Below the pieces are notes generated by a model, which was not told the DNA's origin, ran no database searches, and saw nothing but the letters and a program-made list of their open reading frames with translations. This document shows positions 1,772 through 18,137 of a stretch of 64,000 nucleotides of DNA, one piece after another (within the stretch, counting starts at the first letter, position 1; each line of letters starts with the position of its first letter). Source of the DNA: a virus (Duplodnaviria > Caudoviricetes); the IMG/VR virus record IMGVR_UViG_3300036770_005357. One strand, given 5' to 3'. A program made the position numbers and the translations under genes.

Positions 1772-2433
1772 ACGATACGGTATTAATGATAATGTCCATC
1801 CGTAACATTCAGTCCGTAATAGATTGTAATAATAAATTAAATTGTGAAAAAATTTGGTTCAAAGGATACAAAGAATATGAATTAGCACCAATTATTAATG
1901 ACTTCATAGAAAATTCAAATTTCAAATACTACTTCATCACAAGCGATGACGCCTTATTAAATCATAATCACTTCGAATCATTAAAACATAATCTACAGTT
2001 CTATGATATATTAAGCGCATGGTGCCTAATACGACAAAACGCACACTATACCACCATAGTAAAACCAGAAAAATTCGAAAACTATATTTTTAAACCAAGT
2101 TTTACAACAAGTAAATTCACAAATAATTTTCATACCCATTGCTACAAAACTCACGAAATTAACAGTCTTCCAGATATAATACATACCGCTTTCACCGGTT
2201 GGTGCTACACAGGTATGAAAAAACACATCTGGAAAGAATACCCATTTCAAACTCTAAGTTGGCCATACAGTAGTTCAGATCTGCTCTTCAGTAGACGAAT
2301 AGAATCAGATAAAAAATATAAACAACATATCCTAAAAAAAGCACACGCAATACACCTAAGCCACTTTTATAACAAAAGCTACTTCGACCCATCCACTTGC
2401 TTCAATAATAAAGAAATAGTCAAAACATTCTGA
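1768..2433 (+). CDS. Putative glycosyltransferase-like protein
   Basis: 221-aa ORF with a DxD-like ITSDD motif; cluster context. Confidence 0.4.
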   Translation: MNDTVLMIMSIRNIQSVIDCNNKLNCEKIWFKGYKEYELAPIINDFIENSNFKYYFITSDDALLNHNHFESLKHNLQFYDILSAWCLIRQNAHYTTIVKPEKFENYIFKPSFTTSKFTNNFHTHCYKTHEINSLPDIIHTAFTGWCYTGMKKHIWKEYPFQTLSWPYSSSDLLFSRRIESDKKYKQHILKKAHAIHLSHFYNKSYFDPSTCFNNKEIVKTF

Positions 2434-2435
2434 AT

Positions 2436-2903
2436 ATGATCTTCATTCATCCTACCGCAATAATCGATACACAACCCCAAAATATAGGAGAAAATACAAA
2501 AATATGGGCATTCTCCCATATATGCAAAAATACTACCATAGGTAAAAATTGTGTCATAGGTGAAGGCGTATACATCGGACCCAATGTAACCATAGGCGAT
2601 AATTGCAAAATACAAAACCATAGCCTAATATACGAAGGACTATACATAGAAGATAATGTATTCATCGGACCTAATGTTGTAACCACCAATGATATATTTC
2701 CACGCGCCCTAGGCGACTGGTCCTCAAAATTTAGAAAAACTCTAATAAAAAAAGGAGCAAGTATCTGCGCAAATACTACCATTATCTGCGGCACCACCAT
2801 AGGCGAAAACGCAATGATAGGAGCAGGATCCGTAGTTTCAAAAAATATTAAACCAAATTATATCGCATACGGTAACCCAGCAAGACATGTTAGACCCATA
2901 TAA
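2436..2903 (+). CDS. Hexapeptide-repeat sugar N-acetyltransferase (WbpD/WxcM-like)
   Basis: IHPTAII start, left-handed beta-helix repeats (IGKNCVIGEGVYIG, IGDNCKIQN), C-terminal GAGSVV...GNPAR. Confidence 0.9.
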   Translation: MIFIHPTAIIDTQPQNIGENTKIWAFSHICKNTTIGKNCVIGEGVYIGPNVTIGDNCKIQNHSLIYEGLYIEDNVFIGPNVVTTNDIFPRALGDWSSKFRKTLIKKGASICANTTIICGTTIGENAMIGAGSVVSKNIKPNYIAYGNPARHVRPI

Positions 2904-3210
2904 TATATGCAAATTTCCCATATAAAAAATTTTCCCCACTGCTAAATTACAACCCACTATAAAAAAGTCAAAAAGTACCCCACAAAAACCGCAACAAACA
3001 CATATGCAAAGTTCCCAACAAAAAAACTACCATGTGTGTTGTATGGCTCCCCGCGCGGGGGTGGCGCGGGGTCTTTCCATGTTCAGAACCACTTGACGGG
3101 GCTGCGGGGTGGGGAGGGCCGTCAACTTATATAAAAAGGGTGGAGATATATACCCCCACCCCCGTCAAGCACTTATTTAAGGTACCCCCGCTTGGGGTAC
3201 CCCTAAGCAC

Positions 3211-3729
3211 TTAGTGCCACTCACTGAAGAACTGAGGCTTGCCGTTCCAAGGAAACGCCGTGGAGTAGCTGCTAATCTTAAAGTGGACAGAGCCGTCATT
3301 GTAAACCTTGATACGAGCGGTCTTCACTTCGGTACCGATAGCAGTTTCATCAGGCATACACTCACCGGACATGGGTCCATTGTAGTTACGAGTCTCACCG
3401 ATACTGACATACTTCACGCTATTGGGAAGAACGGCCACGATCTTATAAAAATCCACATTGGTCTGTTCATAACCCCAAGAGCAACTAAAAATATCACCAA
3501 CCTTGACATTAGCCTTAGGCGACTCAGCCTTGGTGACATCGGACTGTCTGACGACGAGGTTGTAGTGAGCGTTCTCGGGAGTGGTGTAGAGCGTACCGTC
3601 ACGCTTGGCCTTCCAGACTCGGCACTTGGTACCGGCGGTGACGACGGTGTTGTAGCTGGTGACGTTGGAGTTGAGGGTGACATAATCACCACGACGAACG
3701 GAGGACTTGGTAGCAGAGGTAGTAGTCAT
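3211..3729 (-). CDS. Phage hypothetical early protein (SWGYEQTNVDFY motif)
   Basis: 172-aa ORF directly after a promoter copy at 3742-3769. Confidence 0.7.
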   Translation of the reverse strand: MTTTSATKSSVRRGDYVTLNSNVTSYNTVVTAGTKCRVWKAKRDGTLYTTPENAHYNLVVRQSDVTKAESPKANVKVGDIFSCSWGYEQTNVDFYKIVAVLPNSVKYVSIGETRNYNGPMSGECMPDETAIGTEVKTARIKVYNDGSVHFKISSYSTAFPWNGKPQFFSEWH

Positions 3730-3990
3730 ATTACGGATAAGAGTGTATCAGGTTTTTTGGTAGTGTCAACAGCTTTTTTATTCGGTATAGTCGGTCATGC
3801 GACTGTTACGGAGGAGGAAGGCTTCAAAGGCGTCCATGTCGGTGGTTTCGTCTTCGGTGTAGATCTCTTCAACGGAGATCCGGACCATATCGTGGAGTTC
3901 GTTGTCGGTGTTGGTGTTGTTGATGTCGTTCATTGTGGGAACAGTGTAGACGAACTGTATGGGAAGTCAAGCCCCTCTTGAACTATTTTT

Positions 3991-4179
3991 TTAGACACCG
4001 GCGACAAATCCAGCCCGCTTGTTACGCTCCCACATCACATCCTCAAGCGTGAACCAAGCTCCATCCCTGCGACGAGGATGATTAGCAACATCAGCTTCCA
4101 GCTTATTTACATAATCTTGATCCACCTCATTCCAACCAAAGCTAGCACATTGATAATAAGTGTCGTTGATACAAACAAT
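3991..4179 (-). pseudogene. Orphaned 3' half of a YodL-like gene (homologous to the C-terminus of 5024..5380)
   Basis: Translates IVCINDTYYQCASFGWNEVDQDYVNKLEADVANHPRRRDGAWFTLEDVMWERNKRAGFVAGV*, with no start codon and an in-frame TAG just upstream. Confidence 0.8.
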
Positions 4180-4221
4180 GTTTTTGTAACTTTTTATCTA
4201 TCTTGGTAATACTTATATCAT

Positions 4222-5052
4222 ATGACTATTACAACACAAGGCGGCATCTATAAAATTGTCAACAAACTAAATGGAAAATATTATGTTGGTAGGACCAAAA
4301 ACTTTAAGAAGAGATGGTATGATCACAGGAAACGATTGCGGAAAAACTGTCACATAAACTCACATTTACAACGTGCGTGGAACAAAGATGGAGAACATTC
4401 ATTTGAATTTGTAATTACGGAAATTATTGATGTCACAATTTGTCATAAAGAAACCGAACAAAAGTATATAGATCAACTTATTGAAGATCGCAAAAATGGA
4501 ATCGACAATAGTTATAACATTAGTGAAAGTTCAGATGGACCAACATTATTCGGTAACAAAAATGGAATGTTTGGTAGAAAACACAGCAATGAGTCCAAAA
4601 ATTTAATGTCTAACAATAGACGAGGTAAAAAACATACCGAAGAAACTAAAAAAATGTGGAGTGAACGTCGAAAAGGAAAACCTTCGTGGAACAAGGGGAT
4701 GGAAATGTCAGAAGAATATCGTAAAAAATTATCTATTATCAGAAAAGGCAGAAGACATTCTGTAGAGACTAAAAGGAAAATTTCGTTATCTCAACTTAGA
4801 GAAAAAAATCACCGATTTGGCAAGCGACCAACAGAAAATCAAATAAACAAAATGGTTGATGTTATAGTTGATAAAACTATTTACACTTGGAAAAATGACA
4901 AGTTGTTACGTACAGAAAATATGACCCGAAGAGATTTTTATAAAAAATACAACATACCAGCATCCAACATATGTGATCTTATTAAAGGAAAAAGAAAATC
5001 TGTTTATGGATGGTATATTGAAACTAGTTCGCCCAACGGGGTTCTCGTATAA
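4222..5052 (+). mobile_element. Free-standing GIY-YIG homing endonuclease with NUMOD3-like repeats
   Basis: GIYKIVNKLNGKYYVGRT, R..H, F.F..E, YN motifs; MFGRKHSNESK/KKHTEETK/RHSVETK repeats; AT-rich and antisense to neighbours. Confidence 0.92.
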
Positions 5053-5380
5053 CAGCATTCAAAGCAAACCACGATCCGTTAATACGATTTGGATGGTTTG
5101 AAACCGCATTCTCTAATTCATTAACTTCTTCGGGAGTAATTTCTTTCCATCCAAGCGATTTACACATATGATATCTGCCATTGATACAAACTACATCTCC
5201 AACGCTGAGTGAACGAATATTGCTATTACGAAATAGTTCACATTCATTAGGCGATCCAGAGTTCCATTGATCAAAGACCATTTCAAGCAGATCGTGGTGA
5301 TCGGTAGCCTTATCGGTTTTGATGACGAAGCTAGCGGTGAACTCATCGGGATAGATGACGGTGATCTTGTTGTTTTTCAT
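5024..5380 (-). CDS. YodL-like domain early protein
   Basis: RSLSVGDVVCING motif; own promoter copy. Confidence 0.55.
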   Translation of the reverse strand: MKNNKITVIYPDEFTASFVIKTDKATDHHDLLEMVFDQWNSGSPNECELFRNSNIRSLSVGDVVCINGRYHMCKSLGWKEITPEEVNELENAVSNHPNRINGSWFALNAVIREPRWAN

Positions 5381-5425
5381 TGTGGAAACAGTATACAGGC
5401 TCTAGTGAGGAAGTCAACAGCTTTT

Positions 5426-5671
5426 TTAACCGAGGACCAAGAAATTCTTCCTTCCATTCTCAGCCACCTCGTTCAGTGCCTCAGCATCCCACTCTCCATT
5501 CATCATTAGAGCTTGCCAACGAATCGTCTTGGCTACAGCCTCCAGAGTCGTGTGTACCGGCTTAAAGCTTGCCAAACCGTATCCGTAGAGGATGGAGTCG
5601 TCCACATTGGACAGATCACGGTTGAAATCCTTGGCGATGGCGAAGGCCTGTTGGAACTGGTTCAGTGTCAT
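5426..5671 (-). CDS. Hypothetical early protein
   Basis: ORF with a promoter-like TTGACG-N17-TACCTT upstream. Confidence 0.6.
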   Translation of the reverse strand: MTLNQFQQAFAIAKDFNRDLSNVDDSILYGYGLASFKPVHTTLEAVAKTIRWQALMMNGEWDAEALNEVAENGRKNFLVLG

Positions 5672-5686
5672 TGTGGATATAAGGTA

Positions 5687-5911
5687 TCAGAAGGGATCCG
5701 ATTCGTCAAGCTGTTCTTTTTCCGATTCACTGAAGATTTCGTCTTGACATTTCTGACAGAGTGCGCTTATATAGTATTCTTCAGCTGAGACTACATCTTT
5801 GAAGGTATCTGCACTTTTACCACAAGAGACACATTGATGAGTTGCTAATGCTAAATTGAAGCTTCTACCGAAGAAAGACAGACTGAACTCATCTCGTATG
5901 TCTATGTACAT
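5687..5911 (-). CDS. Small Zn-binding protein (CxxC...CxxC)
   Basis: CVSCG...CQKCQDEIF. Confidence 0.6.
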   Translation of the reverse strand: MYIDIRDEFSLSFFGRSFNLALATHQCVSCGKSADTFKDVVSAEEYYISALCQKCQDEIFSESEKEQLDESDPF

Positions 5912-6486
5912 AAAATAAACTGGGGTTTTATAATATATAGGATCACCCCAAACCTTTTTATATTGTTAAGCCTTGATTGGCTTTTCAGGCATCTTGGCCT
6001 TATCAGCCCAATCAAATGAGAAGATACCGAGTAGTGTACAAAGTGTAGACAATCCTGTTTGATCTGTATAAATCCAAGCCAATCCAAAGAAGATGGCGGG
6101 ACTACAAATAGTAAAGATTGTTAGCAGTACCTTACCGTAATATTCAATTTTGTCAAACATAGTATTTCCTTTCAGTTTTTGTTTTGTTTTATTCTCCCTC
6201 CTGATTATCATTATTCAGTGACTTACGCAAATCTCGCTTGTTTCTAGTACGATCTCGTTGATGCTTAATTTGCTTTTCCTTACGCCTAGCCCGTATCTTA
6301 TGTTTATCACTCATCGTAGTTCCTTCCCCATTTGTTCTTACGGTTATAAACCTTCTTACTAGCTACAATCCTCATACGAGGATCCATGTTCCACTCTTTC
6401 CTAACTTTGATCTTCATCATAAACAGTTTATATTAAAGTTTTGGTTTGTCAAGCCTATGTTGATCGTAGTTTACAATCAAAAGTAA

Positions 6487-6510
6487 AACATAGCGTTAAT
6501 ATGCGCTATG
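6487..6510 (-). terminator. Rho-independent terminator
   Basis: CATAGCG-catattaa-CGCTATG followed by TTTT on the minus strand. Confidence 0.6.
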
Positions 6511-6519
6511 GCAACCCTT

Positions 6520-6726
6520 TTACATACACTGATATTGTTCACTCTGGGTCCAGTTATTGTACCAATTCTGATAATCCTCCTTTACTTGATTATGAGGTAC
6601 CTGCTTGACAATCGTCTTGCTACCCCATACATGTCCGAGGTTCACGGTATTCTTGAACACAGCCCTAACTCGCATATGTACCTTACCGTACTGAACCACA
6701 TCACCAACAACCAATTGCTTATTCAT
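6520..6726 (-). CDS. Hypothetical early protein
   Basis: 68-aa ORF after a promoter copy. Confidence 0.65.
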   Translation of the reverse strand: MNKQLVVGDVVQYGKVHMRVRAVFKNTVNLGHVWGSKTIVKQVPHNQVKEDYQNWYNNWTQSEQYQCM

Positions 6727-6809
6727 ATTGTGAGACTAGTCTACACCAACCACAGGAGATGTCAAGCGGGGTTTTACAGGATCACCCCAAACCTTTCCTA
6801 CCGAACCAC

Positions 6810-7376
6810 TTACACCGCCTCATACACAAGCGAAGGCTTTCCACGACCTTCAGCCTTCTCTTTTCCTACAACAGTGACAACCCCCGATTTTACCCACTGC
6901 CTCACAACAGGATACAACTGAGGCTGATTGTAACCTGTAGAACTTACAAGAAACTTCATCGTAAAGCGTTTGCCTGTAGGAGGTTGTACATCCACCTTAG
7001 CCTTTGGCCGTCTACCCTTGTTGGGTTTACCGGTTCTGGCAGCCTCTTCCTTTGCGTCTTGGCTGTCCTTGGATTTCTTTAGGAGCTGTTCGTACCGTTC
7101 CTCAGCCGCTTCCTCTGTACGACAGTCAAAAGCGATTTTACCGAATGCGGCACTGCCGGGATATTGGATACGATCTTCCTTTTCTACAGCGCCGCCTGGA
7201 AGAGGAGTGCCTTTTGCGATAAACTTTCCAATGAAGACTTCGTAACCCTTGAGGGTACCGTCCATGCGTTCACGTCGGTACATATATACATTACCCTCTT
7301 TCTTTATTTGGATAAATGTATTGTCACCGACACCATCACAGTTCTTGACAAACTTCTTTGGTAGATCCTTGATCAT
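6810..7376 (-). CDS. Early protein with probable C-terminal winged helix-turn-helix
   Basis: C-terminal helices followed by a GRGKPSLVY wing motif; ATG 6 nt after the -10 box. Confidence 0.55.
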   Translation of the reverse strand: MIKDLPKKFVKNCDGVGDNTFIQIKKEGNVYMYRRERMDGTLKGYEVFIGKFIAKGTPLPGGAVEKEDRIQYPGSAAFGKIAFDCRTEEAAEERYEQLLKKSKDSQDAKEEAARTGKPNKGRRPKAKVDVQPPTGKRFTMKFLVSSTGYNQPQLYPVVRQWVKSGVVTVVGKEKAEGRGKPSLVYEAV

Positions 7377-7406
7377 AAAAACAGTGTATCAGGGTTTTAG
7401 GGTCTG

Positions 7407-7703
7407 TCAAGCCTCGTCGTTGGAATTGAATGGGGCGACCTTGTAGGTTGTATCAAGGTACTTGCCTTTGGGAAATTCGTCTGTAAACTCTTCAATTGGG
7501 TCATATTCGGGCTGAAAGTCTGGGAACTTGGCTTTGATTTCAGCATGGATTTGATTCATAAAATCAATCTTTTGGCTGTACAGCGCAATATCTTCGGGAG
7601 AAGGAGTTGGTAGATTTGCTACATATTCGGACAGTTCCTTATGATACTGTTCGTCCATAGCTTGTTCTTGTTCGGGCGTGAGTTCTTGGTTATCTTGGTT
7701 CAT
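7407..7703 (-). CDS. Acidic hypothetical protein
   Basis: 98-aa ORF. Confidence 0.55.
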   Translation of the reverse strand: MNQDNQELTPEQEQAMDEQYHKELSEYVANLPTPSPEDIALYSQKIDFMNQIHAEIKAKFPDFQPEYDPIEEFTDEFPKGKYLDTTYKVAPFNSNDEA

Positions 7704-7707
7704 ATAA

Positions 7708-8043
7708 TTAATGGGAGGTAGAGTTAGTGTTACAGTTAGTTACATTAGAAACAGTAGCATTACATGCGCAAATCTTCAAGCATTTCATTTGCGGTTGAAA
7801 GACGAATTGATCATTACCCCAAACAGATTCATTGAATGTCTTGATCAGGCCGTAATCAATATCAAAGTAAGTGACATTATTCATTTGATCTTTGAAGATG
7901 ATGCCTTTGAATGCTGTATTGAGGTTTTTGTAGAAACCGACTGGGCCTTTATCAGCGATTGAATAACCGTTACATTGGAATGGCAGGTTATCTTTACTAT
8001 TGGTTGGTTCAAACTTAAAAGTAGCGGTTTTATTATTTCTCAT
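7708..8043 (-). CDS. Hypothetical early protein
   Basis: 111-aa ORF after a promoter copy. Confidence 0.55.
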   Translation of the reverse strand: MRNNKTATFKFEPTNSKDNLPFQCNGYSIADKGPVGFYKNLNTAFKGIIFKDQMNNVTYFDIDYGLIKTFNESVWGNDQFVFQPQMKCLKICACNATVSNVTNCNTNSTSH

Positions 8044-8078
8044 ATCGTGGGAACAGTCTACAGGCTTCTACAGGGAAG

Positions 8079-8273
8079 TCATGGAGTATCTTGATCTAGT
8101 TTAATATGATAATGTGAATTAACCGCATCAGCTAACATTTCAATTGCGTTAATCAAATGGCTCAATGTGGATTCCACGGCGGGATCAGTAGGATGTTCGG
8201 CTCCGATACGATAACAAGATTCTTTGGCTTGATCCAACGCTTTGTCAAAAGCTTTTAAATTAATTTCGGTCAT
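8079..8273 (-). CDS. Hypothetical coiled protein (true start probably MTEINLK)
   Basis: The track start at 8318 coincides with the -35 box; the ATG at 8273 follows the promoter. Confidence 0.55.
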   Translation of the reverse strand: MTEINLKAFDKALDQAKESCYRIGAEHPTDPAVESTLSHLINAIEMLADAVNSHYHIKLDQDTP

Positions 8274-8386
8274 ATTTAATTTACTTTTTAAGTCTACCAG
8301 CTTTTTTCTAGAAGTCAATGGGAAAAATATAACAAGTTTTCAGGATCTCACTCACATTCACCATATGGTGATAGCGATATGTTCCC

Positions 8387-8454
8387 TATAAGTCCCTAGG
8401 AATTGAACCTAGTCTCCTGTAATTACCGGCGCATTACCCGAATGCTGAACTTAC
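8387..8454 (-). ncRNA. tRNA-like element with aberrant anticodon arm
   Basis: Acceptor GTAAGTT/GACTTAT, D-like GCA-TTCGGGTAA-TGC, T arm CTAGG-TTCAATT-CCTAG; anticodon arm shortened and mismatched. Confidence 0.55.
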
Positions 8455-8481
8455 GCGTCTATCTGTACCTTGTTATTTATA

Positions 8482-8553
8482 TAGTATACAGAGGATTTGA
8501 ACCTCTCATTCACCACTGGTGATCAGCTCAGTTTAGAATGACCGCCTGTATAT
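8482..8553 (-). ncRNA. Second tRNA-like element with aberrant anticodon arm
   Basis: T arm AGAGG-TTCAAAT-CCTCT, acceptor TATAC/GTATA, TCACC-AGT-GGTGA hairpin in place of an anticodon arm. Confidence 0.5.
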
Positions 8554-8571
8554 ATTATACAAAAAAATCTA

Positions 8572-8729
8572 TGTTTGAGGCAAGAGCATTTCTACATATT
8601 CAGCGGCAGTTTATTAATGGTGTAACATTAACACTTGCATCACAGATATAATTACACTCATATCTGATCTAACGCTAGATAAGTATCTCTCTGTTGCATC
8701 TCAATTACCTTTCGGTAACACCCCAAACA
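8572..8729 (-). ncRNA. Unclassified structured RNA, about 158 nt
   Basis: Closing stem TGTTTGGGG/CCTCAAACA; internal TTACC-GAAA-GGTAA, CAGATAT/ATATCTG and TTAATG/CATTAA hairpins. Confidence 0.5.
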
Positions 8730-8735
8730 AAATTG

Positions 8736-8831
8736 TTTTGGATTCATGCGGTGTATTGGTTATTTTCCGATCCGCAGTGTCCATCCCCTAAACCAATAGG
8801 TGACACCTTTCATTAGCGGTTGAACCCAAAA
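8736..8831 (-). ncRNA. Unclassified structured RNA with kissing loops, 96 nt
   Basis: Closing stem TTTTGGGTTCA/TGAATCCAAAA; hairpins GTGTC/GACAC and TGCGG/CCGCA; loops TTGGTT and AACCAA are complementary. Confidence 0.6.
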
Positions 8832-8852
8832 ATTATTAAAAGAACTAAAATT

Positions 8853-9061
8853 GTTGATATAGAGGGATTGATTACCCTCACGAAGTTTGGTGGTTGCCCT
8901 TGCTAAAGTTTCTTTCAAGTTATTTCCTTGTGTATGTTTGCTTTAACTCTTCTGTATTATTTCAAATACATTCAGATGATTTTTCATTGAGTTTAACCCC
9001 AACAAAGTCAGACTATTGTCATTAGTCCTATCACCTTGCGTCTATTTCCGCCATATATCAA
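8853..9061 (-). ncRNA. tRNA-Leu-like ends enclosing a long insertion
   Basis: 5' TGATATA-TGGCGGAAATAGACGC and 3' GAGGG-TAATCAAT-CCCTC-TATATCA resemble tRNA-Leu halves; about 150 nt lie between them. Confidence 0.55.
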
Positions 9062-9079
9062 AAAGAACAAAAAAATTGG

Positions 9080-9198
9080 TTTGTTAGCTTCGATGACCGC
9101 ATTTAACTGCCTGTATTATACCCCTACTGGGCGATTACCGACAATCGTGTCGGCATCATTCTCCGTCTACTCATATAATACCATCTATAACTAACAAA
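9080..9198 (-). ncRNA. Unclassified structured RNA immediately 3' of tRNA-Asp
   Basis: Closing stem TTTGTTAGT/GCTAACAAA; nested TATTATA/TATAATA, CCGAC-ACGATT-GTCGG and GCA-GTTAAA-TGC. Confidence 0.5.
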
Positions 9199-9200
9199 AG

Positions 9201-9276
9201 TGGCGGTCTATACGAGATTCGCACTCGTTACTGAATCGTGACAGGATTCTATGATAAACTCATTCAACAATAGACC
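9201..9276 (-). tRNA. tRNA-Asp(GTC)
   Basis: GGTCTAT/ATAGACC acceptor, GAATC-CTGTCAC-GATTC anticodon arm, ACGAG-TGCGAAT-CTCGT T arm, G73 and encoded CCA. Confidence 0.9.
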
Positions 9277-9284
9277 AAAATCTT

Positions 9285-9382
9285 AAGATTGACATCCAAG
9301 TATTTATCAGTGAATCGTAACCCACTGCCCTCTATTTCTTGGTTTTCCGGATAACAACCGGATGAACTTAATCGTCAATCTT
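9285..9382 (-). ncRNA. Unclassified structured RNA, 98 nt
   Basis: Closing stem AAGATTGAC/GTCAATCTT; CCGG/CCGG, CCAAG/CTTGG and CAGTG/CACTG stems; promoter-like TTTACA-N16-TAAGAT just upstream. Confidence 0.55.
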
Positions 9383-9438
9383 GAAAATATCTTATCAGAA
9401 CTTTCTGACTTGTAAAGAACTTTTTTTAAAATCTTTGG

Positions 9439-9530
9439 GGTTGAGGGTGACTGCGCCAGTCGGAGCGCTCTCTTTTACAGTTAAGTAAACCGTGCGGACT
9501 GTTCCCCTACACCAAGTCACCACCTCAACC
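9439..9530 (-). ncRNA. Unclassified four-way-junction RNA starting at a promoter TSS
   Basis: Closing stem GGTTGAGG(T)GGTGACT/AGTCACCCTCAACC with three hairpins; CAGTC and GACTG loops complementary; begins 8 nt after the -10 box at 9539-9544. Confidence 0.65.
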
Positions 9531-9764
9531 TTGAAAATAGTCTACCAGCTTTTTTCTAGAAGTCAACAGATTTTTTAACGGTACTTCAGGCGGATGAAGA
9601 TTTCCTTGTTCTCCTCCAAAACCGTGTCAAGAATCTTGCCGCAGAACTCGCGCCATTCAGTCTCGGTAACTTGTCCGGTTTGGAACTTGCGGAACATGAT
9701 GTCGTATTCGTTCTTCATCGTGAAAACAGTTTACCAGCTTTCTTGGAGAAGTCAACCGCTTTTT

Positions 9765-10166
9765 TTAAAATCCAGCGTATTCCAGTGTATTTCTGATTTT
9801 GGAGTTAATAAACCCCGTTACCTCAACAAATCCATTATCAATCTCTTTCGTTTCAATCTTGAAAGTGAGTTTGGTTTTGGCGAATGGCTTATTTGTTTGA
9901 TGATCTAATGGCGTCGTGGTCAACAAAACCTTGCCGTCATACTTATTCATCAAATAATCATTTTCACTATCTTCACCATCCAAATTCAAGAAGATCGGCC
10001 TGCCATTCTCAATACCAGAAGCAAATGTAATATCAAATAACTTCTCAACAATCTCTACACTGCCACGATTACCGAAAATTTCATCTGTTAACTCCTGTAG
10101 AGTTTCTTGATTATCTTTTTCATTGGAAACTGTAAAGTCAAAATAATAAGTATGATTTGTCTTCAT
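9765..10166 (-). CDS. Hypothetical early protein (start MKTNHTY)
   Basis: ATG 9 nt after a promoter -10 box. Confidence 0.65.
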   Translation of the reverse strand: MKTNHTYYFDFTVSNEKDNQETLQELTDEIFGNRGSVEIVEKLFDITFASGIENGRPIFLNLDGEDSENDYLMNKYDGKVLLTTTPLDHQTNKPFAKTKLTFKIETKEIDNGFVEVTGFINSKIRNTLEYAGF

Positions 10167-10212
10167 CGTGAAAACAGTGTACACCAACCACAGAAGAAGT
10201 CAACCGCTTTTT

Positions 10213-10398
10213 TTACTTTTTCTTGGCTTTCTTGACTGTAGGTTTAGGCTTGCCAGCACCAGCAGCAGCGTCCACAACACCCTGATCGTAACGACCCAGA
10301 TTCTTAAGCACCGTTCCAATGTTTATGCCAGCCCGGACTTGTTCATAAGCAGTGTAAGCGGCCAATTCGTTCTCAGCTTCAGTTCGGTAATCATTCAT
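10213..10398 (-). CDS. Small hypothetical protein with Lys-rich tail
   Basis: ORF after a promoter copy. Confidence 0.6.
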   Translation of the reverse strand: MNDYRTEAENELAAYTAYEQVRAGINIGTVLKNLGRYDQGVVDAAAGAGKPKPTVKKAKKK

Positions 10399-10431
10399 CG
10401 TGGAAACAGTATAGACTACCCATAGGAGATG

Positions 10432-10677
10432 TCAAGCACCAACATACTCAATTTTATTATTAATCTTAACCTCATTACCCAACTTGTAAATCTTCTTAAT
10501 CCACTCAGTACCTCGTACAGCAATAATCTTATCCAACTCCTCACGGGTAACCAACATCATTACATCATACTTCCTATTACCAATACCACGCTGACCATCA
10601 TCATGTTCCTCATAAATCACCACAAACTCAGGATTGACATTCTTGTTCCGATTCATAGGATTCTTCGTGTTCTTCAT
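10432..10677 (-). CDS. Hypothetical early protein
   Basis: Flanked by two 40-bp near-identical promoter copies (10396-10435, 10675-10714). Confidence 0.6.
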   Translation of the reverse strand: MKNTKNPMNRNKNVNPEFVVIYEEHDDGQRGIGNRKYDVMMLVTREELDKIIAVRGTEWIKKIYKLGNEVKINNKIEYVGA

Positions 10678-10748
10678 CGTGGAAACAGTATAGACTACCC
10701 ATAGGAGAAGTCAAGCGGTACATCAAAAAAAGTTTCAGAAAATATCTG

Positions 10749-10840
10749 TTGACCCCACCGGAATTTCTGGTATAGTCTATCCAGATCGGCTGAACAAGCT
10801 AGGATAGGGGACCAACGCCTACCATAATACCGTTAAGGTT
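10749..10840 (+). repeat. Copy A of a plus-strand promoter plus two-hairpin element
   Basis: TTGACC-N16-TATAGT then ccagatcggctgaacaagctaggataggggaccaacgcctacc...cgttaa. Confidence 0.75.
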
Positions 10841-10991
10841 AAAGCTAAACCGCATGGCTTTGCATAGGTTGCGTTCTAGGAGCCAGACCCCTACCGACAC
10901 CCTACCTACGCACCAAAAGTGCGCCTATAGACCGCCTAGGCGCACCGGCAACCGTTCTAGGAGGATCATTTCGTTGAGCTCACCGATATGA

Positions 10992-11264
10992 TCAAACCAG
11001 CATATGGGCTAGTGGATGATAGGATACTTCCTTACGGCTATAAATATTCTTATCATAGTCTGTAGCTTCAATGACGAAAAGACGCTGGGAATACTTAATA
11101 AGACAATAGTTGTACCTAAATAAACTATTCAAATTAAACAACAATTCACCCAACTTAATCTTCACTTCACTATCCTCTACATCACATACACTATGCAAAT
11201 GATCGGTATCATTACGAACACGATCAGTAGATGTAGGATATTTTACAGCCAATATCTTTGTCAT
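10992..11264 (-). CDS. Hypothetical protein
   Basis: 90-aa ORF downstream of the helicase. Confidence 0.5.
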   Translation of the reverse strand: MTKILAVKYPTSTDRVRNDTDHLHSVCDVEDSEVKIKLGELLFNLNSLFRYNYCLIKYSQRLFVIEATDYDKNIYSRKEVSYHPLAHMLV

Positions 11265-11276
11265 ATAATTAATATA

Positions 11277-12650
11277 TTAAATCACCCGAACACTAAATGT
11301 CAAGTCACCATCATTCAACGATTCCAAATTATTAAGCTTGGCTTGAACCCTTCTACAAGCATCTTCCTCAATCGTATTAGCAGCAAATAGTACCTTCTGT
11401 ACACAAGGAGTCTTACCTTCAGCCCTATGAATTCTCCCAAGTGCTTGAAGCATATTGATAGCACTAAAACTAGGACTCAAAATACTATGACGAGGATGAT
11501 TGCCATTCAAGTCATGAAGACTCACACCAGCATTACCCGCTGCCAAATTAGCAATCATAATTCGCTTACGATCCGCTTGAAAATCAGCAATGTCAGCCTG
11601 ACGAGCCTTATCACTCTGTCCACCAACAATACGAGCAACACTCTGACTGTATGTATTGTTTTTACCCAATTGATTAATAATTGCGTCAACAGTATCTGTA
11701 AAATTTACAAATACAACCGGACTGATTCCCTCATCATACAAATCCTTGATCATATCAACCATCGTAGGTACCTTAAGTAACTCAACCTTACGACGAGCCT
11801 TAGTCATAATAGCAAAGTGATGTTCGCTATAATTGGAACTTGACTCTTCAAGTTCAGCCAGTTCTTGTTCCATGATTTCATAGATACGATTGATCTTATC
11901 AGTATTCGTACCCATGTCAAATACATCAGCAATAACCCTATTGTCCGGAAAGATCTTGTCAAACATCTTTCTAGTCATACGGCTAGCCACTTTAAACCGG
12001 TTGAACAGCTTGTCGTGAATATTAGCCATGGCCTCAATCGCTTGACGACTACCAATATCAATTTGATAACCACCAAACCTACCAGTATAAGCACCGCTAT
12101 CAAAGATAAAGCTACGGAAACTCACCAGATTATGAAGCGTCGTAGCAAATCCAAAACTCTTCATCTCCAATGGATTAGTAGCAGCGGTAGCACTCAAAAG
12201 AAGCAGCTTATAGTGGTTCTTCTTGAGAGCAATGAGAAAGTCACTATTCTTGCTATCAAATCCTTTACACTTATGACACTCGTCAATAATGACAAGCGCA
12301 TTCTTGGGAAAGTGGATTTGGTAATCGTCCGGGGTATTGTCTCTACCATTGAGAAAGGAGAGATGTTCAGTATTACCCCGAGTCAATTTCTCAAAGTTTA
12401 TGACGACATGTGCTTTGATACCGAATTCCTTCAGTACATTATGCCAATTGGGAATAACCACTTTGGGACATACAACAACCACAGGGCTATTGAAGTGCTT
12501 GGCGATCCACGCGCCAACATAACTTTTTCCACATCCTGTTTCACTAAGATCTACAGCCGTGCCATTGACATAGAGGCTATCAAGTAGTTTTACTGCATGT
12601 TCCGCTTGAGGACCAATCAGTTTTGAGAAGTCAAATGAAGTAACGCTCAT
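11277..12650 (-). CDS. SF2 (SNF2-like) DNA helicase
   Basis: ETGCGKS Walker A, IIDECH, LSATA, GVSLHD, QALGRIHR motifs. Confidence 0.9.
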   Translation of the reverse strand: MSVTSFDFSKLIGPQAEHAVKLLDSLYVNGTAVDLSETGCGKSYVGAWIAKHFNSPVVVVCPKVVIPNWHNVLKEFGIKAHVVINFEKLTRGNTEHLSFLNGRDNTPDDYQIHFPKNALVIIDECHKCKGFDSKNSDFLIALKKNHYKLLLLSATAATNPLEMKSFGFATTLHNLVSFRSFIFDSGAYTGRFGGYQIDIGSRQAIEAMANIHDKLFNRFKVASRMTRKMFDKIFPDNRVIADVFDMGTNTDKINRIYEIMEQELAELEESSSNYSEHHFAIMTKARRKVELLKVPTMVDMIKDLYDEGISPVVFVNFTDTVDAIINQLGKNNTYSQSVARIVGGQSDKARQADIADFQADRKRIMIANLAAGNAGVSLHDLNGNHPRHSILSPSFSAINMLQALGRIHRAEGKTPCVQKVLFAANTIEEDACRRVQAKLNNLESLNDGDLTFSVRVI

Positions 12651-12768
12651 CGTTTACCTACTGTACCACGGGGTTATAAAAAGTCAAGCCTCCCACGCAA
12701 CTTTTTTCACTTTTCCTCTACTTTTACTCCTCTACTTTTATATATATTAGTAGAGGAAATTATAATAT

Positions 12769-13647
12769 ATGGACAACAATATAAACCAAACTATAATAGA
12801 AAAAGTAGCAATCAAAAGCGTGGCAATATATAAAGCAATAGCTATGTTACCACCACCAGAAATAAAGGACTTATGGGCAGAAAACAATTATACAAAACAG
12901 ACGCAGAACGACTTGAAGCTAGACGCGAAAGACAATTGCGTTACTATGAAAAAAACAAAAACAGAATTAACGCCGGTAGATTGGAAAGATATTACAAATC
13001 AAAACAAGAGCGGGATTTATAAAATAATAAACAAGATTGACGGCAAGTATTATGTAGGTAGAAGTTCCAATATTAAAAAAAGATGGAGATCTCATCGTAA
13101 TCTTTTAAGACAAAACAAACACAGTAATTGTCACCTACAAAGGGCTTGGAATCGTGATGGGGAATCGTCATTTGATTTTATTTTAGTTGAAGAAGTAATA
13201 CCGGATAAAAATATTCTAATAGATGTTGAAACTCGGTACATTAATAAGTTTGTAAATGATAGGAAAAACGGCATTGACGATTGTTACAACTTAAGCTTAA
13301 GTGCGGTTACAGGAAGTGTACCCGGTAATCAACACAGAAAAGGAAAACCTCATTCAATTGAAGATAGATTAAAAATATCTAAGGGACTGTTAGGCAACAC
13401 GAATACTAAAGGTAAATCTATTTCCGAAATACACAGACAAAAAATTATAATGAATGCGCCTAAAGGCAAAAATAATCATGCATTCAATAATAAAATTTAT
13501 AACTTCTTCAACAAAAATACAGGCGAAAGTTTTAGTGGTACACTCAGTGAACTTTTACAAAAAGAAAATATAAAAATAAATTCAGCGTTTCATAGAGTTA
13601 TCCGTGGCGAAAGAAATCATTACAAAGGATGGATATATAAACCCTAG
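12769..13647 (+). mobile_element. GIY-YIG homing endonuclease (probable real start MKKTKTEL near 12946)
   Basis: SGIYKIINKIDGKYYVGRSS; catalytic domain closely resembles the 4222 enzyme. Confidence 0.9.
12873..13025 (+). CDS. Small basic MGRK-type ORF overlapping the GIY-YIG 5' end in another frame
   Basis: Manual translation MGRKQLYKTDAERLEARRERQLRYYEKNKNRINAGRLERYYKSKQERDL*; homolog at 18970. Confidence 0.65.
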
Positions 13648-13653
13648 AATGTC

Positions 13654-13845
13654 TCAATCCTCTGTATCAGCTTTTTCTACAGTGGGAGAGATGATGGGGA
13701 TACGGACAGTGAAGATGATGCGGCTAATTTCGTTGAAGACGATCTTGACAAAAGTGACCGTCAACAAATAAATCAACAATACAAAGGCAATTGCCATACA
13801 GTAATTGCTGATACTAGATGTAATATGTTTAAAAAACTCAGTCAT
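13654..13845 (-). CDS. Small membrane protein
   Basis: Hydrophobic central helix. Confidence 0.5.
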   Translation of the reverse strand: MTEFFKHITSSISNYCMAIAFVLLIYLLTVTFVKIVFNEISRIIFTVRIPIISPTVEKADTED

Positions 13846-13872
13846 ATTAATTATGAATAGTGTTCTTGATTA

Positions 13873-14157
13873 TCAAAACCAGTAATACATTTCTATAGCT
13901 TCAGAACAGCGTGCTTTTGACCACAAAGCAGCAGACTTTTTCGCTATTGATTTGGTATTGTCACTTTCATCATATTCAAAATAATTCCGTTTACCACCGG
14001 GAGAAAATGCAACATATTGCATGTTATCAACATCGTGCCAATACTTTCCTTTAGCAAGTTGTTTTGCTTGTTTTACTTCAACCTTAGTAGCAAATTTACC
14101 ACTATATGGATTATATGGATTTATACAACCCGCTATAAACTTCTGTCGGCTAGTCAT
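13873..14157 (-). CDS. Hypothetical protein
   Basis: 94-aa ORF. Confidence 0.55.
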   Translation of the reverse strand: MTSRQKFIAGCINPYNPYSGKFATKVEVKQAKQLAKGKYWHDVDNMQYVAFSPGGKRNYFEYDESDNTKSIAKKSAALWSKARCSEAIEMYYWF

Positions 14158-14192
14158 ATCTTTTTATAGAATAAGGGGTATCCGCCTAAATG

Positions 14193-14519
14193 TCAAGCAA
14201 CCTTTGCTTCAATCTCAGCCAGTTTCTCAGCGGGAATCAAGCTAATAATTTGACGGGAATACTTAGGAAGCTTACGAAAAGCAATAACAAGTTGTTTAGG
14301 ACTAAGTGTGCGACCCTTGTTAATCTGTTCAGCAAACGAACTTAGTATAAAAGCATCAGTACCGTTGTATCCAACGCCATTGTCGTGTCCCGTGTTTTGA
14401 GCAATCTGCTCGTCAGTCGTCTGCCTCTCCCAGAGCTTCACGATAGCCCTCGTAGCCCAAGTCGGATTGGAGGAGAGCTGCTGCTTCACATATTCAACCA
14501 CTTTCGGATTCAGTTTCAT
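14193..14519 (-). CDS. Conserved phage hypothetical protein
   Basis: EQ...NGVGY...DAFILSSFAEQ...LSPKQ pattern; own promoter. Confidence 0.65.
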   Translation of the reverse strand: MKLNPKVVEYVKQQLSSNPTWATRAIVKLWERQTTDEQIAQNTGHDNGVGYNGTDAFILSSFAEQINKGRTLSPKQLVIAFRKLPKYSRQIISLIPAEKLAEIEAKVA

Positions 14520-14578
14520 CGTGGAAACAGTCTACAGGCTTCTAGGGAGAAGTCAAGCGGTAAAAACAAAAAAACTAA

Positions 14579-14605
14579 CAGAAAATTAATCCGTTAGCTT
14601 TTACA
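14579..14605 (-). terminator. Terminator hairpin, duplicated at about 15120-15146
   Basis: AGCTAACGG-attaatttt-CTGTTAG followed by a T tract on the minus strand. Confidence 0.65.
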
Positions 14606-14624
14606 AAAATATGTTTATAACTTG

Positions 14625-15008
14625 TTATTTACCAAATATTCCAATTTTTCCCATTTGTGATTGAAGAACTGGATTTATTTTCTTCAAAACATCTTTGCCC
14701 GTTGGAATGACTCCACCCCACGACCCTGAATATTTCACTTTTACACGATCATTTCCATCCGGTTCAATTTTTATCATAAAATCTGGGGATTTTTTGGATG
14801 TTATTATGATAGTATTTATGGCAGTATCAATACGCACAAGTAAGTCTCTGTCTATGAGAAGAATGTTACCTTTAAGATCATAAAACAATCTGTCAATTAT
14901 AGATTCAATGTTTGATCCACCAGAAGTACTACGAGTGTCTGATGTATCATCTTCATTTAGGTTTAGAAGACATTCTTTGATTAACATTTTTAGTTGGGTT
15001 CTAGTCAT
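14625..15008 (-). CDS. Late-type protein with MTRTQLKMLIKE tag
   Basis: AT-rich ORF, TATTTATA motif upstream (15031-15038). Confidence 0.65.
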   Translation of the reverse strand: MTRTQLKMLIKECLLNLNEDDTSDTRSTSGGSNIESIIDRLFYDLKGNILLIDRDLLVRIDTAINTIIITSKKSPDFMIKIEPDGNDRVKVKYSGSWGGVIPTGKDVLKKINPVLQSQMGKIGIFGK

Positions 15009-15180
15009 AATTTATATATTGGTTATTTGTTATAAATATACGAAAAAAAAAAATAATAAAAAAATTTACTCGTACAGTTTACTAGCTTTTTTGGGGAAGT
15101 CAAGCGGTAAAAACAAAAAAGCTAACAGAAAATTAATCCGTTAGCTTTGTAATTAATTATAATGATTTAAGTTTAATCCA

Positions 15181-15465
15181 CTACCCGAACAGATCGAAAT
15201 CATCAAAATTATCAACATACCAACTAAAATGACGGGCAAAAGAACGAAAAATGTCAGCCGCTTTGGTTTTTGCTTTTTGAGCTAGATCGGAAAATTGTTG
15301 TTTTTTGACAGGATCGTTTGTTTTCTTACTCAATTCACGATATTCATCTTCCTTTTTTTTCAAAGTAGAATAAGCTAATTTTGCTTTGTTAATCGTGGAT
15401 TTGTCATGATCACTATTTTCAATAATTACTTCTTTGATAAGTTCTTTAAGTTCTTTTTTAGTCAT
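15181..15465 (-). CDS. Late-type protein with MTKKELKELIKE tag
   Basis: TATTTATA motif at 15470-15477. Confidence 0.7.
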   Translation of the reverse strand: MTKKELKELIKEVIIENSDHDKSTINKAKLAYSTLKKKEDEYRELSKKTNDPVKKQQFSDLAQKAKTKAADIFRSFARHFSWYVDNFDDFDLFG

Positions 15466-15520
15466 ATACTATAAATATATGAGAAAAAAATAATTACAGA
15501 TTATAAAACTTTTATAGATA

Positions 15521-15742
15521 TTATTTTGCGTAATGTATTTTATTAGTGCAATTACCTTTATGTATTAATGTCCAGCCACCTATTTTACCGTTATAAGTCT
15601 GAATATACTCACAACCATCTATAACTTTATTTATATTGGTAGGTATCATCATAAATATAATAACAGAAATAATAATAATGCCCAAGTAAATCAAAGTTTC
15701 ATGCGTTATAAATGCTTTGTTTTTCATAGTTGCTTCTTTCAT
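15521..15742 (-). CDS. Small membrane protein, paralog of 40963..41157
   Basis: TM helix then IDGCEYI...LIHKGNCTNKIH, matching IDNCQYI...LTHKGNCTNNIH. Confidence 0.65.
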   Translation of the reverse strand: MKEATMKNKAFITHETLIYLGIIIISVIIFMMIPTNINKVIDGCEYIQTYNGKIGGWTLIHKGNCTNKIHYAK

Positions 15743-15800
15743 CACGAGAACAGTCTACAGTTTTCTAGGGAGAAGTCAAGCCCCCTTTTTTGGGGGAAAT

Positions 15801-15878
15801 TGGTGGGCCTTGAAGGATTTGAACCATCACTCTCAGCAATTATGAGTTGCGTGTTTTAACCAATTAAACTAAAGGCCC
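15801..15878 (-). tRNA. tRNA with CAT anticodon, probably Ile2 (or Met)
   Basis: GGGCCTT/AAGGCCC acceptor, CTCATAA loop, TTCAAAT T loop, ACCA end; own TTGACA-N17-TACAAT promoter. The acceptor resembles Ile2 tRNAs. Confidence 0.85.
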
Positions 15879-16083
15879 GTTATCTAAAAACTATTGTATC
15901 AAACAACTATGCTTTTGTCAAATACTCAAAGTTCGGTATAACAAACACTCACTGTACGACAATCGCCTTTGTAACGCTTGTACGCTTTTTGTTCTGCTTG
16001 ATTATGGTTGGCAGCCTTAATGTAGCCAACTTCTACGCCGTTGTAATAAACAATAAATGTCTTCATATCTTTATCAGTAGTTA

Positions 16084-16281
16084 TCAATAATCATATCCAC
16101 GCTCAATAGCATCAGCACAACTATTGCAAATAGCATACTGAGGCTGTATGTTCACCATACGATCACATCGCTTACACCGCTTAGCAACATTCGTACGCTG
16201 ACACTTATGATAGTAATCAACCATCTCAGGCTCATCCATGTTGCTCCAAGTGCCATAATTGTCGTCACAGTAGGTTCTCAT
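16084..16281 (-). CDS. Small Zn-ribbon protein
   Basis: CKRC...CNSC. Confidence 0.6.
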   Translation of the reverse strand: MRTYCDDNYGTWSNMDEPEMVDYYHKCQRTNVAKRCKRCDRMVNIQPQYAICNSCADAIERGYDY

Positions 16282-16336
16282 TGTTTTAATAGTCTATCAG
16301 CTTTTTTTAATTTGTCAACAGCTTTTTTTAGAGAAA

Positions 16337-16436
16337 GTATCAATTCGGTTGCATCACACCTAATTTATTCTGCAATGCTTTGAGGACAGGCTCTCCATCC
16401 TCATCCGCTAGGCTACGGATTCCACCGAATTGACAC
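16337..16436 (-). ncRNA. Stand-alone cloverleaf-like ncRNA, 100 nt
   Basis: 13-bp closing stem GTGTCAATTCGGT/ACCGAATTGATAC with three hairpins; promoter TTGACA-N16-TATTTT directly upstream; no ORF. Confidence 0.7.
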
Positions 16437-16464
16437 CACCAAAATATCAGACTTTTTTAATCTG

Positions 16465-16695
16465 TCAAGCCTTCGGACACTGTTGAAACTCAAGACTCGG
16501 CGCAATCTTCTCCATCACCCTCATCGCTTCGTCCCGACTGTACACCTGAAAAAACAACTCTCCATCTCCACGATACAACCTCCACACCAAACGCTCACGG
16601 TTGTACATCACATACCCAACAATCACCCCTTGGTTGACCAGCGCATCCACCGGTTTTCCGTCAATCTCAGTCACCGTCCAGTTCATCGTTTTCAT
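16465..16695 (-). CDS. Hypothetical early protein
   Basis: ORF after a promoter copy. Confidence 0.6.
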   Translation of the reverse strand: MKTMNWTVTEIDGKPVDALVNQGVIVGYVMYNRERLVWRLYRGDGELFFQVYSRDEAMRVMEKIAPSLEFQQCPKA

Positions 16696-16729
16696 TACGG
16701 GAAACAGTCTACCAGAAATCTTCAGTCTG

Positions 16730-17005
16730 TCAAGCCCTCACCGTCAACTCGTTCAGCTGTTGAATGGTAGCCCCGCTCATCTCAACCGCCCAATGAACAT
16801 GGTTCATTGCCTCCTTCTTCTTGATTGAATGACCCAGAAACTTAGCACCGTCACCAGTTCCATGATACATTCGCCACCAGTTCTTGCCGTGCTTAGTATC
16901 AACAGGCTTATCAATCATACCCACAGCCTCACCCGCTTGATTGAAAGCGACATGAAGGTTAGGAATCGTGCTCTTGATCTTCTTCCAAGTGATGTAAGTA
17001 ATCAT
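16730..17005 (-). CDS. Hypothetical early protein
   Basis: ORF after a promoter copy. Confidence 0.6.
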   Translation of the reverse strand: MITYITWKKIKSTIPNLHVAFNQAGEAVGMIDKPVDTKHGKNWWRMYHGTGDGAKFLGHSIKKKEAMNHVHWAVEMSGATIQQLNELTVRA

Positions 17006-17415
17006 ATTACGGGATACAGTGTACCAGCTTTTTTTAAGCTGTCAAGCGCTTTTCGGGCTGATAAGTGACGATAGGCGCTGGTTGGATATTCATCGCCGTC
17101 ATCTTGTCAACATAATCACACCACAACAGATAGTTTCGCTGGCCAGACTTCTTGGTTTTGTTCTTCTTCATATTACGGGTAAGAGTGTATCAGGTTTTTT
17201 TCGGTTGTCAAGCCCCTTCAGTCCTCGTCAATCATGGAGTCGTCCACCTCAAAGCTGCCCTCAATGTAGCTGCCATCCTCAGGCAATGGAGCACCCTTAG
17301 CCTCATGTATTGCTTCAGCTACACTGTCAGCCTGCACTTCTACATAACCATACATCTGCCAAACAACAGGTACACGATAGGTTTTCATTGCGGTCATATC
17401 TTTATTTATTTAATT

Positions 17416-17691
17416 TCAGAACCAAAACTCAATACCAATAGTGTCACCCTTGCTATCAAACTGTAATACACCATCCACAACATTACCCACAATATCAAGA
17501 GAAAAACTCAAATCACCCTCCAATACCAACTTGCTATCAGTAATCTCAAAATCCTCAATCTCATATCCATCAGTATCACCATTAAAGTAATACATAACAG
17601 ACGACGGCATATCATTGCCAAATGTATCAACACACTCATTCAAATACTCACGAATCGTCATAGTAACAGTCTCAGTTTTCATTGCATGCAT
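17416..17691 (-). CDS. Acidic hypothetical protein
   Basis: ORF after the promoter at 17716-17743. Confidence 0.6.
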   Translation of the reverse strand: MHAMKTETVTMTIREYLNECVDTFGNDMPSSVMYYFNGDTDGYEIEDFEITDSKLVLEGDLSFSLDIVGNVVDGVLQFDSKGDTIGIEFWF

Positions 17692-17731
17692 ATCTTTATT
17701 TATTTAACGGTTAATAGTCTATCAGCTTTTT

Positions 17732-17965
17732 TTAATCTGTCAAGCCCCCAGTCATCACCTCAATGTCCATCTTCGTCTCACCCTGTAGTGTTTGCCAACG
17801 ATACCCCGACAAATACTCGTTCACCTGCTCCTGCGTCATATCCACAGCCTCCACCCGACGAGATTGATAGGTAGCACCCTCAAAGTAATGAGGACGAATG
17901 TCACGCCCATACCACTTGTCAGCCCTGCCCCGATCCCACGGTCCTCCATGTCGTTCGTTCATCAT
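17732..17965 (-). CDS. Conserved phage hypothetical (HGGPWDRG.AD..YGR)
   Basis: Motif; ATG after a promoter copy. Confidence 0.6.
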   Translation of the reverse strand: MMNERHGGPWDRGRADKWYGRDIRPHYFEGATYQSRRVEAVDMTQEQVNEYLSGYRWQTLQGETKMDIEVMTGGLTD

Positions 17966-18137
17966 GTACACACTCTACACTGCCCACCGAAGAAGTCAAG
18001 CTCCTCCAACCACTTTTTTTAAACTTCTTCCTTTATCGTTAAATTTACCCCACCCCACCCAATACCCTACCGAGACACCATCCAACAAACCAAAGAGGGC
18101 CTGGCGCAATCCTGGCGCTGCCAGGCCCCCGTCAACC

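Follow-up and report, generated by a model that had tools for sequence, protein, structure and literature searches.

A conserved cloverleaf RNA in an accessory early cassette of large freshwater phages

Phages carry more small structured RNAs than have been catalogued, and almost none of these has a known role. In phage T4, RNAC and RNAD are encoded together with the tRNA genes. They are small non-coding RNAs that are not tRNAs, have no assigned function and are classed as late (PMC9697503). The YrlA-type Y RNAs, some of which are phage-encoded, have paired 5' and 3' ends that form a long bulged helix on a tRNA-like module, and they are recognized by a GNCGAAN0-1G motif near the 5' end together with a canonical T arm (PMC4201824). 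Other phage-associated RNAs multimerise by loop contacts, some of them at a length of less than 200 nt (PMC12286853; bioRxiv 10.64898/2026.07.01.735769). At the level of gene organization, the PeSL modules of T4-type phages are built from repeated early promoters that flank small, swapped modules (PMC2839356, PMC4122927).

Here we describe an element of 92 nt on the minus strand, at positions 9439-9530 of the window, by which we mean the whole 64,000-nt stretch of a Caudoviricetes genome that was analysed (IMG/VR record IMGVR_UViG_3300036770_005357). The element is very probably a real, functional structured RNA gene. Like T4 RNAC and RNAD, it would specify a small stable non-tRNA RNA of a phage; unlike them, it has its own early-type promoter. 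With the phi29 pRNA and the ROOL, GOLLD and manA RNAs it shares an association with phages, paired termini and complementary loops able to link molecules, but unlike the pRNA it lies in the early region, away from the packaging motor, its multimers are at most predicted, and there is no family match. As with PeSL, a promoter-flanked module has been gained, lost and differently placed among related genomes, whereas here the module carries a structured RNA in place of an ORF and its promoter lacks an accompanying terminator stem-loop. The locus offers a clean case: the RNA is short enough for structure work, it has a promoter of its own, it belongs to an abundant and widespread group of freshwater phages, and two natural alleles already mark the parts that can change (the stems) and those that are fixed (the loops).

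Fold and promoter of the element

Folding of the minus strand with ViennaRNA returned the four-way junction that the original prediction, made by a model from the letters of the DNA, had placed at 9439-9530, with a closing helix and three hairpins. The 14-bp closing stem that had been proposed is present in the sequence and in the fold as 8+6 bp with a 2-nt bulge. Its 5' strand (element 1-16, 9515..9530, bulge at 8-10) pairs with its 3' strand (element 79-92, 9439..9452; fold and allele comparison) through 1-8/85-92 and 11-16/79-84, and the centroid structure adopts the other register of 7+7 bp. All three proposed hairpins (GTG..CAC, TTTAC/GTAAA and GCGC/GCGC) were also recovered. The D-like arm (9492..9512) consists of a 4-bp stem from G19-C39 to U22-G36 (GUGU/GCAC, element 19-22/36-39) and a 13-nt loop, AGGGGAACAGUCC. 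The anticodon-like arm (9474..9489) has a 5-bp stem, UUUAC/GUAAA (element 42-46/53-57), and the 6-nt loop UUAACU. The T-like arm (9453..9468) pairs GCGC with GCGC and may add a U-G pair (GCGC(U)/(G)GCGC, element 63-67/74-78); its loop UCCGACUG, which can also be written (U)CCGACU(G), holds the U-N-N-R-A pentanucleotide UCCGA, readable as a putative T-loop motif. The D-like and T-like arms were invariant in all copies described below.

The minimum free energy of the 92-nt element was -35.1 kcal/mol (z = -2.5), a value reached by 1 of 200 shuffled sequences. This statistic is modest taken alone, and the element stands beyond chance because it is conserved in 14 other contigs with compensatory changes. 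Folding of the plus strand of 9439-9530 gave no defined cloverleaf, with a centroid of only -14 kcal/mol, and two G-U pairs of the fold fit the minus strand only. The fold is thus specific to the minus strand, and it is identical in both alleles.

A promoter 8 nt ahead of the RNA had also been claimed, and we found a sigma-70-type promoter, TTGACT-N16-TAGACT, followed by the 8 nt ATTTTCAA and then by G1 of the helix at 9530. The -35 hexamer TTGACT (9561..9566, minus strand) was invariant in all copies of both alleles. The -10 hexamer TAGACT (9539..9544, minus strand) reads TAAAGT or TAAATT elsewhere, always within the TAnnnT frame and 16-17 nt from the -35 box; in both alleles the sequence of this spacer differs freely among copies while the hexamers are kept. 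Just 5' of the -35 box, an A-tract, AAAAAA (9571..9576, minus strand), may act in the manner of an UP element, and AAAAAAAG/AAAAAATC precedes TTGACT in all copies. Within the discriminator and start region (9531..9538, minus strand), ATTTTCA is kept in all copies. The spacing points to transcription from A9532 (+/-1), in keeping with the claim that the element begins at a promoter start site: it begins at, or within 0-2 nt of, this predicted position, and the distance from the -10 box to the helix is preserved at 6-8 nt in both alleles.

On the 3' side, the helix is followed by an A/U-rich single-stranded flank, CCAAAGAUUUUAAAAAAAG (9420..9438, minus strand), which runs into the next promoter. 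The sequence of this flank varies between copies, with an A-run and then a U-run kept. A search of 9420..9438 for an intrinsic terminator found no terminator-like site, and the next cassette, with its own promoter, lies about 50 nt downstream of the element; the 3' end of the RNA is probably formed by processing. One metatranscriptome contig covers 9466-9744 and spans the promoter and the upstream ORF. Its origin may be DNA or read-through RNA, and because contigs cannot show RNA ends it argues neither for nor against the start site.

The original prediction had gone one step further and joined the first and third loops by base pairing. The sequence part of this claim was borne out: CAGUC in the D-like loop (element 30-34, 9497..9501, minus strand) is the exact 5-bp complement of GACUG in the T-like loop (element 70-74, 9457..9461, minus strand). 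The contact itself is a candidate, both loops being invariant in every copy and free of covariation. All homologs keep the complementarity, but they keep it by invariance, which neither supports nor contradicts pairing. Five Watson-Crick pairs between loops of these sizes are expected by chance in 3% of cases with random composition and in 6% with shuffled loops, and the loop-loop duplex would yield -4.7 kcal/mol against 5.8 kcal/mol needed to open the competing local pairs. Pairing of CAGUC with GACUG is possible and only weakly beyond chance. Alternatively, the GG of the first loop could pair with the CC of UCCGA as in the elbow of a tRNA.

Copies, alleles and the accessory cassette

Full-length matches to the covariance model, at 85-122 bits, were found in 14 other contigs from independent freshwater metagenomes, and the copies fall into two alleles, type A of 92 nt and type B of 87 nt. 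Pattern scans and covariance model R1 identified nine further contigs with full-length copies (two from IMG/VR and seven from metagenomes); the shorter type B allele was found in one further contig and then, in identical form, in four additional assemblies to which a neighbouring protein led. In addition, near-identical DNA was present in 19 DNA runs of 12 studies, mostly from fresh water.

Among type A copies with different neighbourhoods, only 3 of 92 columns of the element were variable, compared to 37 of 61 upstream (a stretch of 60 nt) and 28 of 46 downstream. The three substitutions fall at the first base (G1A), in the helix (C84A) and in the middle loop (C51A), where contigs L012 and L018 have A. 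The contigs of four further runs, a sample independent of the search pattern that fixed the loops, carried zero variants inside the element and many in its flanks, and the neighbouring tRNA-Asp shows 7 differences in the population of one of these runs. In type B the closing helix has 11 bp instead of 14 bp and the bulge has moved to the 3' strand, with pairing kept by changes on both strands; pair 45-54 of the middle hairpin is switched from A-U to C-G, one base of the 5-nt spacer is changed, and all three loops, the other stems and the other junction bases are identical. Formal covariation is thin, with 2 pairs changed on both sides, a number equalled in 22 of 500 shuffles. Fixed loops with variable stems are the pattern expected of a functional RNA, and, judged from the alignments, the element is under very strong purifying selection. 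Part of its extreme invariance could also come from recombination that spread the cassette recently, and not from selection at every base.

We rejected a coding reading, since the only overlapping ORF (9395-9523) is broken by the 5-nt difference in length between the alleles and by a 1-nt indel in the 3' flank. The single metagenome scan fixed both loops in its pattern and hence cannot test loop covariation, and 4 of its 12 hits were GC-rich chance matches. Three further IMG/VR patterns aimed at more diverged homologs, one with the first loop left free, returned only the same two contigs. Covariance model R1 found no paralog in the window or in 80-odd loci and no match in five whole contigs of more distant relatives. 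A GTDB pattern scan for a bacterial copy gave 4 hits, all rejected by the model (L024 looks like coding sequence), and neither the region nor a nearby protein matched any annotated phage record by BLAST.

Promoters of the form TTGAC(A/T)-N16-TAnnnT head about 30 minus-strand cassettes between roughly 3000 and 19000 of the window, each with one short gene. In the ORF cassettes, the ATG follows 9-10 nt after the -10 box (for example …GTTTCCACGATG, GTTTCCAC[G/A]ATG), and their mRNAs would thus be nearly leaderless, with a leader of about 3 nt and no Shine-Dalgarno sequence. RNA cassettes start with A(R)(R)GUUGA at the position where ORF cassettes start. In this window the element comes first in a 1.2-kb run of RNA units. 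ARAGORN calls one of them, at 9201-9276 (minus strand), as a tRNA-Asp(GUC) with an encoded CCA; its D arm is odd in that it lacks GG, and its T loop reads UGCGAAU. Two more units with a canonical T arm (GGUUCAAnUCC), both on the minus strand, were missed by ARAGORN at default settings: the Rfam tRNA model gives that at 8388-8453 a sub-threshold score of 15.6 bits, and that at about 8481-8557 is called a tRNA with an 8-nt anticodon loop (cacc) by relaxed ARAGORN. In other genomes ORF cassettes flank the element. Its place is constant, in one early region with a helicase upstream of it.

Type A and type B are surrounded by unrelated genes, and among the neighbourhoods no gene was found that co-occurs with the element. 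Relatives without it, sampled through homologs of the helicase and of a 140-aa ORF, include many with a helicase 73-76% identical as well as more distant ones. Because it is absent from many relatives and its neighbours differ between copies, we consider the element an accessory cassette. Such a distribution is typical of host-interaction genes.

Likeness to tRNA and candidate roles

We compared the element with tRNA (RF00005) and found that the likeness lies in the layout. The junction spacers are 2/2/5/0 nt in both alleles, compared to 2/1/4-5/0 in tRNA; the inner stems have 4, 5 and 4-5 bp; U17 occupies the position of tRNA U8; GG is present in the first loop and U-N-N-R-A in the third; and the element is located in the tRNA region of the phage. 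In contrast to tRNA, with its 7-bp acceptor stem, unpaired discriminator and CCA, the closing helix has 14 bp (type A) or 11 bp (type B) and its ends are fully paired. The bases that follow the helix vary (CCAAAG, CAAAAC or AAAAUA), and a CCA-ended acceptor was rejected in the absence of a fixed CCA. The first loop has 13 nt; the anticodon-like loop has 6 nt on a 5-bp stem, or 8 nt on 4 bp, instead of 7 nt; and the third loop has 8 nt, is closed by C-G or U-G and carries C in place of U55, whereas tRNA has the 7-nt UUCRANY closed by G53-C61. The element cannot be a decoding tRNA. Any tRNA mimicry would be one of shape rather than detail, given the 8-nt T-like loop with C at the place of U55 and the 6-nt middle loop, and since helix length differs between the alleles, enzymes that measure tRNA, such as RNase P, would see different substrates.

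At default settings ARAGORN made no tRNA call at the element; only its loosest mitochondrial setting, which produced 17 calls in 1.5 kb, gave a cloverleaf at 9445-9521. Rfam returned no relevant match for the whole window at gathering score, or for 1401 nt and 111 nt at E <= 10, a level at which its tRNA model also misses the tRNA-Asp of this phage. The RNA matches no catalogued family. It resembles the YrlA Y RNAs in its paired ends and long bulged helix, but its 5' strand, GGUUGAGGUGGUGAC in type A or AGUUGAUUGAC in type B, lacks GNCGAAN0-1G, there is no canonical T arm, and the terminal helix, which replaces the anticodon arm in YrlA, replaces the acceptor arm here. No Ro60/TROVE gene, the usual neighbour of a Y RNA gene, was matched in partial contigs of three relatives (181 kb in total), in which the controls matched, and no CCA-adding enzyme was found in the contigs of the relatives. 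A phi29-type pRNA, which binds the prohead connector and packaging ATPase, was rejected on the four-way rather than three-way junction, the lack of an Rfam pRNA match and the location in the early region.

Our preferred reading, to which we give an even chance, is that the locus is a separate gene whose product is a small, stable, tRNA-shaped non-coding RNA of a new family, and that a group of abundant large freshwater phages carries it as an accessory early cassette. The transcript would begin 0-2 nt before a closing helix made by its own two ends and would be trimmed at the A/U-rich 3' flank to about 95-100 nt. It may then adopt an L-shape with the elbow held by the D-like and T-like loops, either through GG/CC as in tRNA or through the CAGUC/GACUG kiss. 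Early in infection, the free and stable RNA would bind a protein that recognizes the shape of tRNA, with the invariant loops as the contact surface and the terminal helix as a protective handle. That the RNA works in this way, by protein binding as a mimic of tRNA shape, falls a little short of an even chance. A first guess for the partner would be a tRNA-targeting host defence nuclease, or an enzyme that processes or binds tRNA, with the RNA serving as decoy or sponge. We favour the decoy form because the element is distributed as an accessory cassette, would be expressed early and lies among tRNAs, grounds that make it an inference only, and a role specifically in anti-defence is unlikely. 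Mimic or decoy is our best guess, from shape and setting only. If a translation-dead look-alike of tRNA does titrate a host factor that binds tRNA or a defence nuclease that cuts it, it would constitute an RNA-only form of counter-defence, beside the spare tRNAs that phages carry.

The same observations can be read in other ways. The element might be a cis-acting 5' module, whose paired 5' end shields read-through RNA from 5'-end-dependent decay or marks a processing site. Transcripts must run on, since no terminator precedes the next cassette, the RNA opens with the helix, and the A(R)(R)GUUGA start and UCAAC end common to several RNA cassettes would suit a shared role in processing or stabilization. 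We nevertheless regard this as improbable, somewhat more so than the anti-defence role: with the next promoter about 50 nt on, most downstream RNA would be without the element; the downstream content varies by genome, being RNA units or unrelated ORFs; and a mere 5' stabilizer needs no invariance of all three loops. A riboswitch or cis-acting leader, which would sit with an expression platform in the 5' UTR of its gene, was rejected on the position of that promoter and on the downstream unit, which differs between genomes.

A trans-acting RNA that uses its invariant loops as seeds against phage or host transcripts is less probable again. Positions 24-34 of the D-like loop are complementary over 9-11 nt to GACUGUU(U/C)CC, which stands just before the start codon in 8 early ORF cassettes, and the GACUG of the T-like loop, with which this target also begins, could mask the seed. 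In the window, 9497-9507 faces sites at 16709-16699, 14532-14523, 8058-8049, 3945-3937 and others, each with the motif GACTGTTYCC in the -10/start region. Against this, transcription of these cassettes is predicted to start downstream of the motif, and only read-through RNA would carry it; 21 sites were seen where 12 were expected, a result matched by 3 of 100 shuffles; and L009, L021, L072 and L073, in which the element is identical, have ATTTCC or ATTCCC and no such site. We rejected GACTGTTYCC as a conserved target on its absence from these other genomes with an identical element.

Two further readings have little probability, less than that of a trans-acting RNA. In the first, also offered in the original prediction and specifically supported by no more than the 5-bp complement, CAGUC would pair with GACUG of a neighbouring molecule, so that dimers, rings, cages or other larger RNA-only assemblies form early in infection; were such intermolecular pairing true, the RNA would be a small cousin of the phi29 pRNA or of the manA, ROOL and GOLLD cages. 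Each molecule does carry both complementary loops, and both are invariant, but a tRNA-like fold brings the two loops together within one molecule, five base pairs arise by chance at the rates given above, and the element, placed in the early region and not among packaging genes, has no family match to pRNA, manA, ROOL or GOLLD. In the second, equally doubtful, the element is a decayed tRNA gene, or acts as DNA (a recombination module or a protein-bound site) with no RNA function. It does lie in an array of tRNA and tRNA-like units, others of which are degenerate, and the region is shuffled by promoter-flanked cassettes like the PeSL modules (PMC2839356). These 92 nt, however, are better conserved than anything else in the region, as a pseudogene would not be; the changes in hairpin and helix are compensated, only the strand in promoter sense folds, and the promoter geometry is preserved in both alleles.

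Four-way junctions with loop contacts occur in the hairpin and twister-sister ribozymes and in several riboswitches. Although the element shares this layout, a small self-cleaving ribozyme or a ligand-binding aptamer is the least probable reading, as there is no Rfam family or core match (hairpin, twister-sister, HDV-like, hammerhead) at E <= 10 even in the 111-nt search, the internal loops that these ribozymes require are absent, and no gene is placed under the control of the element.

Other RNA genes and features of the early block

The promoters of the early block are repeated (examples on the minus strand are 10435-10396, 14556-14520 and 5417-5380), and this repeated DNA is covered at very high depth and interrupts assemblies. 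Different RNA cassettes begin with A(R)(R)GUUGA and end with its complement UCAAC, forming a common terminal helix; they include 9285-9382 (minus strand) of the window, L008:163-245, and those from L012:1165 and from L064:5797 onward. The shared helix may serve as a common handle, or may simply have come along with the promoter module by inheritance. Contigs from two metagenome runs join across 9198-9286 and 9198-9385, and part of the population is without the tRNA-Asp alone (87 nt) or without the tRNA-Asp and the upstream RNA unit (186 nt); L008 is entirely without the segment corresponding to window 8851-9374.

The composition of the window changes with the end of the early block: 2000-20000 has 38-44% G+C and negative GC skew, and 20000-64000 has 30-35% G+C and positive skew. 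Two GIY-YIG homing-endonuclease genes, at 4222-5052 and 12769-13647 (both plus strand), lie on the opposite strand within the block, one of them with NUMOD3 repeats.

The "tRNA region" of this phage consists largely of non-tRNA RNAs, each of which is an early gene in its own right. A second cloverleaf RNA that stands alone, unrelated in sequence and with a promoter of its own, is found at 16337-16436 (minus strand) of the window, at L009:9074-9173, at L021:8698-8797 (minus strand) and at L028:3449-3546. Across four genomes 8 of its pairs are compensatory, and its distribution is wider than that of the element at 9439-9530, so that stand-alone cloverleaf RNA genes recur in these phages.
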